A stretch of DNA of 32,000 nucleotides from the NCBI RefSeq assembly GCF_900104925.1, contig NZ_LT629735.1, forward strand, positions 372,291-404,290, in the 5' to 3' direction. Shown in pieces: positions 12,865-30,947 of this stretch. The notes below the pieces were generated by a model that was given only the letters and a program-made list of their open reading frames with translations, searched no databases and was not told the origin of the DNA. The position numbers and the translations under genes are program-made. Numbering within the stretch: position 1 is the stretch's first letter; each line of letters starts with the position of its first letter. Source of the DNA: Opitutus sp. GAS368. Its GTDB lineage: Bacteria > Verrucomicrobiota > Verrucomicrobiia > Opitutales > Opitutaceae.

Positions 12865-12914
12865 TGGAGGGCTCAGCTCCAGCTGAGCCGCGGCCCAGCT
12901 GGAGCTGGGTCCTC
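12865..12914. repeat. Family 2 variant doublet: GGAGGG - hairpin - hairpin - CCTCC
   Basis: ggaggg gctcagc-tcca-gctgagc cgc (g)cccagc-tgga-gctggg t cctcc. It has the same architecture and 'agtggaggg' left flank as the 30885 copy, but different stem sequences. It sits in the divergent promoter region between the DHS-like and M16 genes. Confidence 0.85.
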
Positions 12915-12977
12915 CAATATTCAGCCCTACCTCGAAACTTGCAGTCGGCCCGCGGGTCCGAAGACTCCTCCTCCGTC

Positions 12978-15818
12978 ATGCTCCTCTCCCGCCCCGCCCG
13001 CTTCCGCCTCGCCTTCACCGCCCTGCTGCTCGCGCCCCTGCTGGCCTTGGCCGCCGACTTCCCGCACGAGACCAGTGACCTGCCCGCCGATCCGGGCGTC
13101 ATCTGGGGCAAGCTCGACAACGGCCTGCGCTACGCCCTCCAGCACAACCCCGAGCCCCGCGGCCGGGTCAGCGTCCGCCTCGCCGTGCGGGTCGGCTCGA
13201 TCTACGAGAACGACAACCAGCGCGGCCTCGCCCATTTCCTCGAGCACATGGCCTTCAACGGCAGCCGGCACTTCCCGTCGGCCAACGTCGTCGAGTTCTT
13301 CCAGCAGCTGGGCATGGAGTTCGGCGGCGACACCAACGCCTCCACCGGCTTCGACCGCACTGTCTACCAGCTGGAGCTGCCCGACACCAAGCCGGAAACC
13401 CTGCGCCAGTCGCTCACCTTCTTCGCCGACGTCGCCGGGGGCCTGCTGCTGGAGACGAAGGAAATCGAGAAGGAACGCGGCATCATCCTGAGCGAAAAGC
13501 GCGCCCGCGACTCCGTCGGCCTCCGCACCTTCCAGGCCGAGCTGGAGTTTCTCGTCCCCGAGACCCGGTTCCCGCAGCGCCTGCCCATCGGTATCGACAA
13601 GGTCATCCAATCCGCCGACCACAACCGGTTCGTCGAGTTCTACAACGCCTGGTATCGCCCCGAGCGGATGGTGCTGATTCTCGCCGGCGACTTCGACCCC
13701 GCGGCCGTCGAGCCGTTGATCAGGGAACTCTTTGCCCCGCTCGCCGCCCGCGCCCCCGCGCTGCCGGAGCCACGCCTCGGCTCGGTCGCGCCGTCCGACG
13801 ATGTCGTCGCCCTGCTGCACACCGAGAATGAGGCCGGCAGCACCAATGTCGCCCTCGAGACGGTCGTGCCCTACGCCTTCGAGCCCGACACCGCCGCCAA
13901 CCGCCTCAAGGACCTGCCGCGCACGCTCGCGCTCAGCATGCTCAACCGCCGGCTCTCCATCCTCTCCAAGAAGGAAGGGGCGCCCTTCCTCAGCGGACTG
14001 GTCGGCGTGACCGAGCAGTTCGACTTCTTCCGCAACGCCTCCATCGAGCTCAACTGCCGCCCCGACCAGTGGTCGGCTACGCTCGCCGTCGCCGAGCAGG
14101 AGCTGCGCCGCGCCCTCGACCACGGCTTCCAGCCGGAGGAGCTCGCCGAGGCGGTCGCCGAGATGCAGAACAACCTGGAGCAGGCCGTCCAGACCGCGCC
14201 GACCCGTCGCTCCCCCGGCCTTGCCGACAAGCTGGCCGACGACCTGATCGACCGCAACGTCACCACGCACCCCAAGGCCGACCTCGCGCTCTACGCTCCC
14301 GCGCTGGCGGCCATGACGCCCGAGGCGTGCGCCGCCGCCCTCAAGGCCACCTGGAACGAGGCCGCAGGGCGCCGGATTTTCGTCAGCGGCAACCTCGAGC
14401 TGGCCAAGGCGCCGCAGAACATTTCCGCCGCCTACGCCGCCAGCCGGCGCACCATTGTCACGCCGCCGGCCCGCACCGCGTCGGCCGCGTTCGCCTACAC
14501 GGATTTCGGCAAGCCCGGCAAGGTGGGCGACACCAAGGCCGTGGACGACCTCGGTGCCACGCTCGTCGAGTTCAAGAACGGCGTGCGTCTCAACCTCAAG
14601 CCCACCGACTTCGAGGCCGGCCGCATCCGGGTCTCCGTCCGCATCGGCGGCGGCATGCTCACGCTGCCACCCGGCCAGCGCGGCCTCGCCCTTCTCGCCA
14701 ATGTCGCCTTCACCACCGGCGGCCTCGGCAAGCACAGCGTCGACGACTTGCAGCGCCTCCTCGCCGGCAAGACCGTCGGGCTCGGCTTCGGCGCCCAGAC
14801 CGACGCCTTCACCTTCACCGGCACCACCAACCGCGACGACCTCCTGCTGCAACTCCAGCTCTTCTGCGCCTACCTCACCGACCCGGGCTACCGGCCCGAG
14901 TCCCTGCGTCAGGTGCACAAGGCCGCCGACCAGATTTACACCCGGCTCGCCCACACGCCCGACGGCCCGCTGGAGCTCGAGGTCGCCAACCTCCTCGCCG
15001 GCGGCGACCCCCGCTTCGGCCTGCCCCCGAAGGAAGTTCTCCTGGCCCGCACGCTCGACGAGCTGAAAGCCTGGCTCACGCCGCAGTTCGCCAAGGGCCC
15101 CATCGAGATCGCCATCGTCGGCGACTTCGATCCCGCCGCCACCCTCACCGCCGTGGCGCAGACCTTCGGCGCGCTGGCCAAACGCCAGAAAAAGCCCGGC
15201 TACGACGACGCCCGCCAGGTCGCCAAGCTCGCCGCGCCCGTCGCCAAGGCCTACACCGTCGAGTCCGAGATTCCCAAGGCCCTCGTCCGCCTCTACTGGC
15301 CCGCCACCGACAACCGCGACGTCAAGCTCGCCCGCCGCCTGCGGCTGCTGGCCGACGTGTTCGCCGACCGCCTTCGGGTGAAGATCCGCGAGGAGATGGG
15401 CAGCACCTACAGCCCCGGCACCGCCACCGACCTCAGCGAGACCTACCCCGGCTACGGCTACCTCATCGCCGAGGCCACCGTGGCTCCCGACGACACCCGC
15501 CGCATCGCCGACGCCATCAAGGCCGTGGCTGCCGCCCTGCACGACGGCGGCGTCACCAATGAGGAACTCGTCCGCGCCAAGCAGCCGGTGCTCACCGCCC
15601 TGCGCGAGAGCGCCCGCACCAACGGCTACTGGCTGGGCACCGTCCTCGCCGCCGCGCAGGAATTTCCCGAACACCTCGAGTGGAGCCGCAGCCGTTACAG
15701 TGACAATGAGAGCGTGACCGTGGAGGAACTGAGCGCCCTGGCGAAAGAGTATCTCGATCCGGCCCGCGCCTCCGAGTTCATCGTCACGCCCGTCCCGCCG
15801 AAACCAGTCGGGCCGTGA
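12978..15818 (+). CDS. Secreted M16 (pitrilysin/insulinase) family zinc peptidase, double-module
   Basis: HFLEHMAFNGS provides the HxxEH zinc motif, and the length fits two tandem M16 active/inactive module pairs. I prefer ATG at 12978, which gives a signal peptide MLLSRPARFRLAFTALLLAPLLALAADF. The ORF-track start at 12864 lies inside the repeat. Confidence 0.85.
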   Translation: MLLSRPARFRLAFTALLLAPLLALAADFPHETSDLPADPGVIWGKLDNGLRYALQHNPEPRGRVSVRLAVRVGSIYENDNQRGLAHFLEHMAFNGSRHFPSANVVEFFQQLGMEFGGDTNASTGFDRTVYQLELPDTKPETLRQSLTFFADVAGGLLLETKEIEKERGIILSEKRARDSVGLRTFQAELEFLVPETRFPQRLPIGIDKVIQSADHNRFVEFYNAWYRPERMVLILAGDFDPAAVEPLIRELFAPLAARAPALPEPRLGSVAPSDDVVALLHTENEAGSTNVALETVVPYAFEPDTAANRLKDLPRTLALSMLNRRLSILSKKEGAPFLSGLVGVTEQFDFFRNASIELNCRPDQWSATLAVAEQELRRALDHGFQPEELAEAVAEMQNNLEQAVQTAPTRRSPGLADKLADDLIDRNVTTHPKADLALYAPALAAMTPEACAAALKATWNEAAGRRIFVSGNLELAKAPQNISAAYAASRRTIVTPPARTASAAFAYTDFGKPGKVGDTKAVDDLGATLVEFKNGVRLNLKPTDFEAGRIRVSVRIGGGMLTLPPGQRGLALLANVAFTTGGLGKHSVDDLQRLLAGKTVGLGFGAQTDAFTFTGTTNRDDLLLQLQLFCAYLTDPGYRPESLRQVHKAADQIYTRLAHTPDGPLELEVANLLAGGDPRFGLPPKEVLLARTLDELKAWLTPQFAKGPIEIAIVGDFDPAATLTAVAQTFGALAKRQKKPGYDDARQVAKLAAPVAKAYTVESEIPKALVRLYWPATDNRDVKLARRLRLLADVFADRLRVKIREEMGSTYSPGTATDLSETYPGYGYLIAEATVAPDDTRRIADAIKAVAAALHDGGVTNEELVRAKQPVLTALRESARTNGYWLGTVLAAAQEFPEHLEWSRSRYSDNESVTVEELSALAKEYLDPARASEFIVTPVPPKPVGP

Positions 15819-30861: not shown

Positions 30862-30884
30862 GGCGGCATCGACGGACGCTGAGT

Positions 30885-30947
30885 GGAGGGCGCGCGTCCC
30901 TGCGCGCCGGTTCGATCGCCAACGGCCCGCCGGGATGCGGGCCCTCC
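30885..30947. repeat. Family 2 doublet with 15-nt spacer, between convergent genes
   Basis: ggagg-gcgcgcgtccctgcgcgcc - ggttcgatcgccaac - ggcccgccgggatgcgggcc-ctcc. Hairpin 1 is ggcgcgc/gcgcgcc and hairpin 2 is ggcccgc/gcgggcc. Confidence 0.9.

Follow-up and report, generated by a model that had tools for sequence, protein, structure and literature searches.

GGAG-headed doublets and the genes around them

We analysed a window of 32,000 nucleotides (nt) from Opitutus sp. GAS368 (contig NZ_LT629735.1, positions 372,291 to 404,290; G+C 64-71%), which harbors five inverted doublets, that is, ten units, of a short hairpin repeat headed by the tetranucleotide GGAG, all at the coordinates listed in an initial annotation made from the letters alone. 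The covariance model R1, built from the 6 distinct window units (alignment A4) and applied to the window with filters off, returned exactly these ten units, nine of them at 36.8-41.6 bits (E-values 4e-7 to 4e-6); the tenth, the bulged unit at 21036-21059, scored 23.9 bits, and the best score below the ten was 15.7 bits. Each unit of about 25 nt is composed of T-GGAG, a stem of 7-8 bp opening with GG in every window unit, and a loop of 4-6 nt, and the tag GGAG is present in 10/10 units. The initial annotation had described GGAGG-headed inverted doublets with 0-18 nt between the units, and this anatomy holds, with spacers of 2, 0, 0, 18 and 15 nt in doublets 1 to 5, the heads pointing outward and the units lying tail to tail; we add the outermost T and A, so that a doublet reads 5'-TGGAGG...CCTCCA-3'. 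The stems it listed were also recovered (GGCTCAGC, (GGA)CCCAGC, GGCTCGC, GGCCCGC and GGCGCGC), as was the bulge in the 21036 copy; a one-base bulge is also present in the 5'-arm unit of the second half of doublet 1.

Four of the five doublets are intergenic and one is intragenic, with copies 3, 4 and 5 within 1-3 nt of a stop codon; no strand is assigned to any of them. Doublet 1 (12865-12916; units 12865-12889 on the plus and 12892-12916 on the minus strand, R1 scores 39.3 and 36.8 bits; stems GGCTCAGC and GGA-CCCAGC, loop TCCA) occupies the divergent intergenic region between a deoxyhypusine-synthase-like gene (start 12837, minus strand) and an M16 peptidase gene (ATG at 12978). Doublet 2 (17277-17326; units 17277-17301, plus, GGCTCGC.GTCCCT, and 17302-17326, minus, GGCCCGC.GTCTCT) is a canonical 48-mer with T/A ends and lies inside an exosortase open reading frame (ORF). 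Doublet 3 (19527-19576), which begins 3 nt past the stop codon of a phoH-like gene and stops 8 nt short of the ybeY ATG, is its exact reverse complement, so that doublets 2 and 3 are one 50-nt sequence in opposite orientations with 100% reverse complementarity. The two halves of doublet 3 differ at three positions, as had been noted before, namely a compensated pair (C-G versus T-A) and one loop base; since doublets 2 and 3 are identical, this compensated pair was not observed independently, and we are looking at one master element seen twice. Doublet 4 (21036-21102; units 21036-21059, plus, and 21078-21102, minus, at 23.9 and 41.6 bits) begins 1 nt past the stop codon of a DUF502 gene, and its first hairpin has a one-base bulge and the head GGGAGG. 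Doublet 5 (30884-30948; units 30884-30908, plus, GGCGCGC.GTCCCT, and 30924-30948, minus, GGCCCGC.ATCCCG) is flanked by convergent genes, with the stop codon of a GH5 gene 1 nt away. No part of the window matched an Rfam family at the gathering threshold.

The exosortase (EpsH) gene hosting doublet 2 (16732-17826, minus strand; PF09721 at amino acids 49-354) is 100% identical to the annotated GAS368 exosortase. The doublet resides in frame, its 48 nt encoding GGPASLRAGSQGREPS, and the Pfam domain spans the insert; the loop in which it falls is hypervariable in both length and sequence among 120 homologs. Under a strict coding test based on G+C at third codon positions, 4 of 75 doublets are intragenic, which is a lower bound, since the test misses the ybeY cases described below.

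A further doublet at 5371-5446, between two plus-strand genes, has the form TGGAG-GCGGGGC-CATCA-GCCCCGC ... CCTCC (stem GCGGGGC, loop CATCA); R1 did not detect it in the window scan, and it may be a divergent sixth member of the family. In the stretch 16001-17000 the local G+C dips to 0.59, two ORFs (15971-16627, plus, and 16244-17494, minus) have no Pfam match, and the sole promoter-like site of the scanned region is located (16516-16488, minus strand).

Stem covariation and distribution of the units

We scanned one genome per species of the Genome Taxonomy Database (GTDB) with the pattern GGAGGGCNCGCNTCNCNGCGNGCC and obtained at least 120 matching stretches, the large majority of them in Lacunisphaera, Oleiharenicola, Opitutus and metagenome-assembled genomes of other Opitutaceae and Verrucomicrobiota; matches in unrelated high-GC taxa were scattered singles, consistent with chance, and a scan of viral contigs gave one match only, which indicates no phage link. 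Extending the covariance model to relatives, a check that the initial annotation had itself put forward, R1 identified 103 and 121 further units, that is, 224 matches in 865 kb of related loci (labelled L with a number hereafter). Copies 2 and 3 share a 48-mer that occurs unchanged at nine places in seven genomes, and none of these nine identical copies is flanked by direct repeats or target-site duplications. Of the pairs counted, 81 are arranged head-out versus 19 head-in and 36 in tandem, and single GGAG units also occur.

Two side observations concern this distribution. GGAG units form regular tandem clusters at L105 (1226-1945, period of about 215 nt) and L039 (3823-4273, 142 nt) that resemble large arrays of bacterial interspersed mosaic elements (BIMEs). 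GGAG units also occur in L122, which is labelled Candidatus Rokuibacteriota and is syntenic with window positions 21249-22880 at 73% identity; it is probably a mis-binned Opitutaceae contig.

The stems covary. As the search pattern fixed 6 of the 8 stem pairs, we read covariation at the pair left free, which is Watson-Crick in 143 of 157 cases (91%; C-G 69, T-A 37, G-C 30 and A-T 7), the remainder comprising 3 G-T and 11 unpaired cases. In two alignments of R1 matches, A5 and A6, which as model alignments are biased towards structure, 96.7% and 95.2% of the cells are paired, compared with 79% and 76% after shuffling, and none of 500 shuffles reached the observed pairing in either alignment. 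Both sides have changed in 6 of the 8 stem pairs in A5 and likewise in A6, and slid controls were paired at 19-47%.

A test on doublet partners bypasses selection for pairing: the anchor is a pattern-matched unit, and its partner is simply the sequence before the next CCTCC. Seventy of 94 partners are paired at 7/7 positions, and among these only 4 match the anchor's arms exactly, the other 66 being different, with 46 one compensated pair away and 14 two away; lone uncompensated differences are rare (2 cases). Overall, 71 of 81 doublets are heterotypic and 10 homotypic; the doublets are therefore heterotypic by rule, with the differences between partners compensated locally. Together with the covariation at the free pair, these partners bear out the earlier proposal that constraint or copying acts on the individual small hairpins. 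The companion claim, that the differences between halves spoil the long arm-to-arm pairing while each local hairpin stays perfect, is correct in its second part only: the long pairing is weakened but not abolished, and the predicted minimum-energy fold of the single-stranded DNA is still the long arm-to-arm hairpin (-23.3 kcal/mol versus -9.1 and -9.0 kcal/mol for the small hairpins). Nevertheless, since the half-to-half changes are compensated locally, conservation tracks the small hairpins rather than the long one.

Turnover at orthologous sites and the associated transposase genes

Gain, loss and type replacement of doublets all occur at orthologous sites. At the copy-4 site the doublet is absent from four relatives, one of them about 94% identical, and the phoH-ybeY copy (doublet 3) is common only to the window and this last relative. 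The copy-1 site carries in L070 a doublet of a sister family headed GTAG. This sister family, which is context here and not part of the GGAG set, is represented in the window by TGTAG doublets at 17811-17891 (stem GGCGGGAT), at 19962-20015 (54 nt) and at 21802-21882, none of them assigned a strand. The last of these follows the gene 21165-21806, after which L101 and L006 have GGAG units instead. The second is in frame inside ybeY (19585-20184), encoding VGASLVDARGRPQGTPLQ just upstream of HGWLHLAGYDD; at the same codon position L101 carries a GGAG doublet of equal length (54 nt) whose stems are unrelated, and L057, L006 and L017 have further GGAG-type inserts, the frame being kept in all. Exosortase orthologs are absent or degraded in L057 and L017. 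Elsewhere, the exosortase insert of L204 has one uncompensated A-to-G change, giving a G·T or C·A intermediate, that of L203 has decayed, lacking its head and foot and bearing several uncompensated changes, and the site in L205 is occupied by a different, 52-nt doublet with perfect stems.

Several other features of ybeY and the copy-4 site were noted. The usual YbeY zinc-site motif is H-x3-H-x5-H; the window sequence HGWLHLAGYDD (20110-20140), shared with all four aligned relatives, has Asp in place of the third His. At about 19686-19760, ybeY of the window has some 63 extra nt that are absent from four relatives and comprise a hairpin CCCCTCTGGAGAGGGG and a ...GGGGGGTGTCG motif; this segment is related to repeats at 312-327, 358-373, 289-320 and 24754-24785, suggesting that there is a third family of small repeats and that it, too, enters coding sequence. 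The window and L057 share, and L101 and L006 lack, a 22-nt segment (..GGGCTCCGAAGCCTTGGCGAAGG..; at about 19885-19906 of the window) that encodes GSEALAKE. EALAKE- or LRQGFGS-like peptides are also found in other Opitutaceae, where they fall in the hypervariable loop of the exosortase; the segment may represent a further short mobile repeat that is read in both orientations. At the copy-4 site, L101 (2099-2177) and L006 (1189-1301) carry an AG-rich/CT-rich inverted repeat, GAGTGAGAGTGGAAAGGGAAAGTGAGAGGG ... CACTCTCACCCTCACTTTCAC, which the window lacks.

In relatives, GGAG units are associated with genes for REP-associated tyrosine transposases (RAYTs), REP standing for repetitive extragenic palindromic sequence. 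The search was seeded with an E. coli RayT sequence, which served as a lead only, and the matches were then verified with NCBIfam and PDB. A gene for a small Y1/HUH protein adjoins the units at four related loci. In L053 the gene (145-624) lies between TGGAGGGCCCGCGTCCTCGCGGGCC (115-139) and GGCCCGCAGAGACGCGGGCCCTCCA (626-650), that is, between TGGAG-hairpin and hairpin-CTCCA; the layout is similar in L096 and L087, and in the cultured Oleiharenicola lentus (L206) the gene is flanked as in L053, one of the units there, GGCCCAGC, resembling the second unit of window copy 1. The proteins matched NCBIfam REP_Tyr_transpos (NF047646) at 80.6 and 83.8 bits (cutoff 80) and PDB 4ER8, the E. coli TnpA-REP, at an E-value of 3.6e-9 with the HUH and catalytic-Tyr motifs aligned. 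They are about 159 amino acids long with the motifs DH[ILV]H, WQ and YVRNNP, and HUH and Y-x3-NP are kept in about 118 of 120 homologs. A metagenome scan with the RAYT alignment confirmed 505 relatives, and among the perfect hairpins around the best 80 of these 505, 199 of 280 are headed GGAG and 3 of 280 GTAG, with at least one GGAG-headed hairpin at 55 of the 80 loci. Behind the GGAG head stand 40 different 5' arms, nearly all beginning with GG and again forming heterotypic pairs. Thus, the expectation of a RAYT-like Y1 gene flanked by the units proved right for L053, L096, L087, L206 and these 55 metagenomic loci. None from the source genome is present among the best 120 of 1028 and the best 120 of 1878 homologs, and Pfam found no RAYT on 26 ORFs of the window.

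The two heads appear to be read separately. In doublets, 57 pairs are GGAG/GGAG and 19 GTAG/GTAG, with 5 mixed, and the RAYT of L112, which has 28% identity to that of L053, is flanked by TGTAGGGTCGGCGCTTGCGCCGACC and its inverse, both TGTAG units. Head concordance and RAYT flanks thus support, at the level of sequence, the earlier suggestion of a second recognition specificity, with the caveat that the heads are one base apart (TGGAGGG versus TGTAGGG). E. coli E100/H101 are listed among the GTAG contacts (PMC6006769); at the equivalent positions the GGAG clade mostly has D-T, whereas L112 keeps E-H, a difference that may be taken as a lead on how the tag is read. The tag bases A3 and G4, proposed as the guide for CT cleavage (PMC3479197; PMC8266576), are unchanged in GGAG.

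Interpretation and relation to known systems

We consider that the doublets are REP/BIME-type non-autonomous elements, similar to the REP doublets known as REPINs, that belong to a GGAG-tagged family widespread in Opitutaceae and are probably mobilised by RAYTs; we put the probability of this explanation at roughly 85%. By analogy with E. coli TnpA-REP and IS200/IS605, the HUH/Y1 proteins of the RAYT clade would bind the hairpin as single-stranded DNA, along with the GGAG tag 5' of it, and the bound enzyme would then cleave and transfer strands nearby; it is by homology that the RAYT is the likely mobilising agent of the doublets. Copying or exchange would be restricted to units whose head is intact and whose stem pairs perfectly, and mainly for this reason would the stems be perfect, the copying filter, more than purifying selection at each site, keeping them paired while their sequences diversify.

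Four observations weigh against this explanation. The exosortase insert is 100% identical in three genomes whose flanks are 10-14% different, so that copying alone is insufficient and site-level constraint or gene conversion also acts. The covariation figures, such as the 143 of 157 Watson-Crick pairs, count copies rather than independent events, and some of the data had been preselected with the pattern that fixed 6 of the 8 stem pairs. Pfam Y1_Tnp (PF01797) scored below its cutoff for two of the three proteins matched, the closest RAYTs. Finally, no GAS368 RAYT of the GGAG clade is present among the best 120 of 1028 and the best 120 of 1878 homologs, sets that extend to roughly 50-55% identity; the local copies may therefore be relics or be serviced by a more distant enzyme.

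Among the alternatives, the one with the largest, though still small, share of our belief is that the doublets are kept mainly for a host RNA role, as 3' mRNA-stabilising hairpins or as termination or attenuation signals. Such roles are known for the REPs of other bacteria, which lie mostly downstream of ORFs (PMC3733652), the edges of copies 3, 4 and 5 adjoin stop codons, and three genomes carry the exosortase copy without any change. However, no T-run occurs in the sequences flanking any of the five copies, no doublet is among the terminator-like sites of the region, whose total is at chance level, and the doublets occupy both orientations as well as a divergent promoter region and coding sequence; moreover, the RAYT linkage and the presence of one tag on very different stems would be left unexplained. 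As a secondary function, an RNA-level role is compatible with RAYT mobilisation. We find it less probable still that a single RAYT, relaxed at tag position 2, serves GGAG and GTAG units alike. The one-base distance between the heads, the swapping of GGAG and GTAG doublets at orthologous sites and the tolerance of group-3 TnpA-REP enzymes to changes at the first two tag positions (PMC8266576) all fit such an enzyme, but it would not be expected to leave heads concordant within doublets (57 and 19 versus 5 mixed), 199 GGAG versus 3 GTAG heads around the GGAG clade (best 80 loci), and a RAYT of 28% identity flanked by TGTAG units.

It is highly improbable that the doublets are miniature inverted-repeat transposable elements (MITEs) whose terminal inverted repeats (TGGAGGGC.../...GCCCTCCA) are read by a DDE-type transposase: they share with MITEs the inverted ends, the shortness and the insertion polymorphism, but the nine identical copies have no target-site duplications, single units exist, each half is a hairpin with a covarying stem, and the associated gene is a Y1/HUH RAYT. 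The initial annotation had also remarked on the likeness of the GGAGG/CCTCC feet to Shine-Dalgarno (SD) and anti-SD sequences. That they act as SD/anti-SD mimics controlling translation of a neighbouring gene is scarcely credible, as the resemblance is one of sequence and finds no support in position: at copies 3 and 4, GGAGG is separated from the next start codon downstream by at least 52 nt, and the motif adjoining the ybeY ATG is CCUCC. Furthermore, the head stands on 40 stems beside RAYT genes in many taxa, which recognition by a RAYT explains and translation does not.

Building on RAYT mobilisation, we tentatively raise a broader possibility, which on balance we doubt: that, next to the GTAG- and CGTC-tagged REPs, there is a third superfamily made up of the GGAG REPs and the D-T-type RAYT clade, with a tag retargeted at position 2, coexisting with the GTAG system in Opitutaceae, the doublets of the two systems replacing one another at fixed sites. 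On this broader reading, replacement at codon-exact, frame-preserving sites such as those in ybeY and the exosortase would point to RAYT-catalysed REP-for-REP exchange rather than random insertion.

The best example of a transposase that has been domesticated or has long persisted, together with a non-autonomous partner, is provided by REP/RAYT systems; work on how a RAYT recognises its tetranucleotide tag is still under way, on three GTAG models. The GGAG clade is a natural tag variant in which A3-G4 are kept, found beside the GTAG system in the same genomes, and hence offers a ready-made specificity swap with a cultured host, Oleiharenicola lentus. Orthologous sites with differing doublet types likewise open a route to studying REP exchange in place, and annotators should be warned that a REP can be the source of a short 'low-complexity' insert in a protein of Opitutaceae.

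The string GGAG is absent from the texts of PMC3733652, PMC2817692, PMC8266576, PMC6006769 and PMC12306157, an earlier description elsewhere being possible, and a literature search for RAYT with GGAG gave one REP/RAYT paper with a single GGAG occurrence (PMC4690160), other matches being unrelated. The closest known systems are the REP/BIME elements with their RAYTs, such as the E. coli REPtron (PDB 4ER8) and, from Stenotrophomonas and Marinomonas, the short perfect REPs of group 3. They share with the GGAG units a perfect hairpin of 20-25 nt with a 5' tetranucleotide tag, and dispersed copies located mostly just downstream of genes; E. coli BIMEs are likewise inverted dimers of two unit types (y and z REPs), and in the REPtron, too, a small HUH/Y1 gene (here of about 159 amino acids) is flanked by its own units, the RAYT motifs DH[ILV]H, WQ and YVRNNP being common to both. 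They differ in the tag, which is GT[AG]G there and GGAG here, and in the host phylum, here Verrucomicrobiota, and E. coli TnpA-REP differs from the GGAG clade in having E100/H101 where the latter mostly has D-T. REPINs (Bertels and Rainey 2011, PMC3116915) are similar in the predominance of inverted pairs and in the predicted folding of the whole doublet as a long hairpin, but in the GGAG doublets the halves are systematically different and the changes are compensated locally. The Rickettsia palindromic elements (RPEs) are also palindromic repeats inserted in frame into protein genes and tolerated in surface loops, but there is no sequence relation and RPE-1 is longer.

Within the same bacterial family, Di Nocera et al. 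2013 (PMC3733652) reported an abundance of GTAG REPs in Opitutus terrae, the species in which intragenic REPs were most numerous. These elements (GTAG-17, -19 and -20) form dimers 0-2 bp apart, with many copies in genes and dimers encoding about 20 amino acids (PMC3733652), and the TGTAG doublets of the window, with their terminal GTAG, are of that kind. As intragenic REPs have thus already been described in O. terrae, the in-frame GGAG copies are not new in kind. However, GGAG falls outside the degenerate tags GYAG, GYRG, GTRG, GTMG and GTGG (PMC3733652), and the GGAG units have a RAYT clade of their own. Accordingly, while REP, BIME and REPIN elements and their RAYTs are well described, it is the GGAG head variant that appears to be new here.

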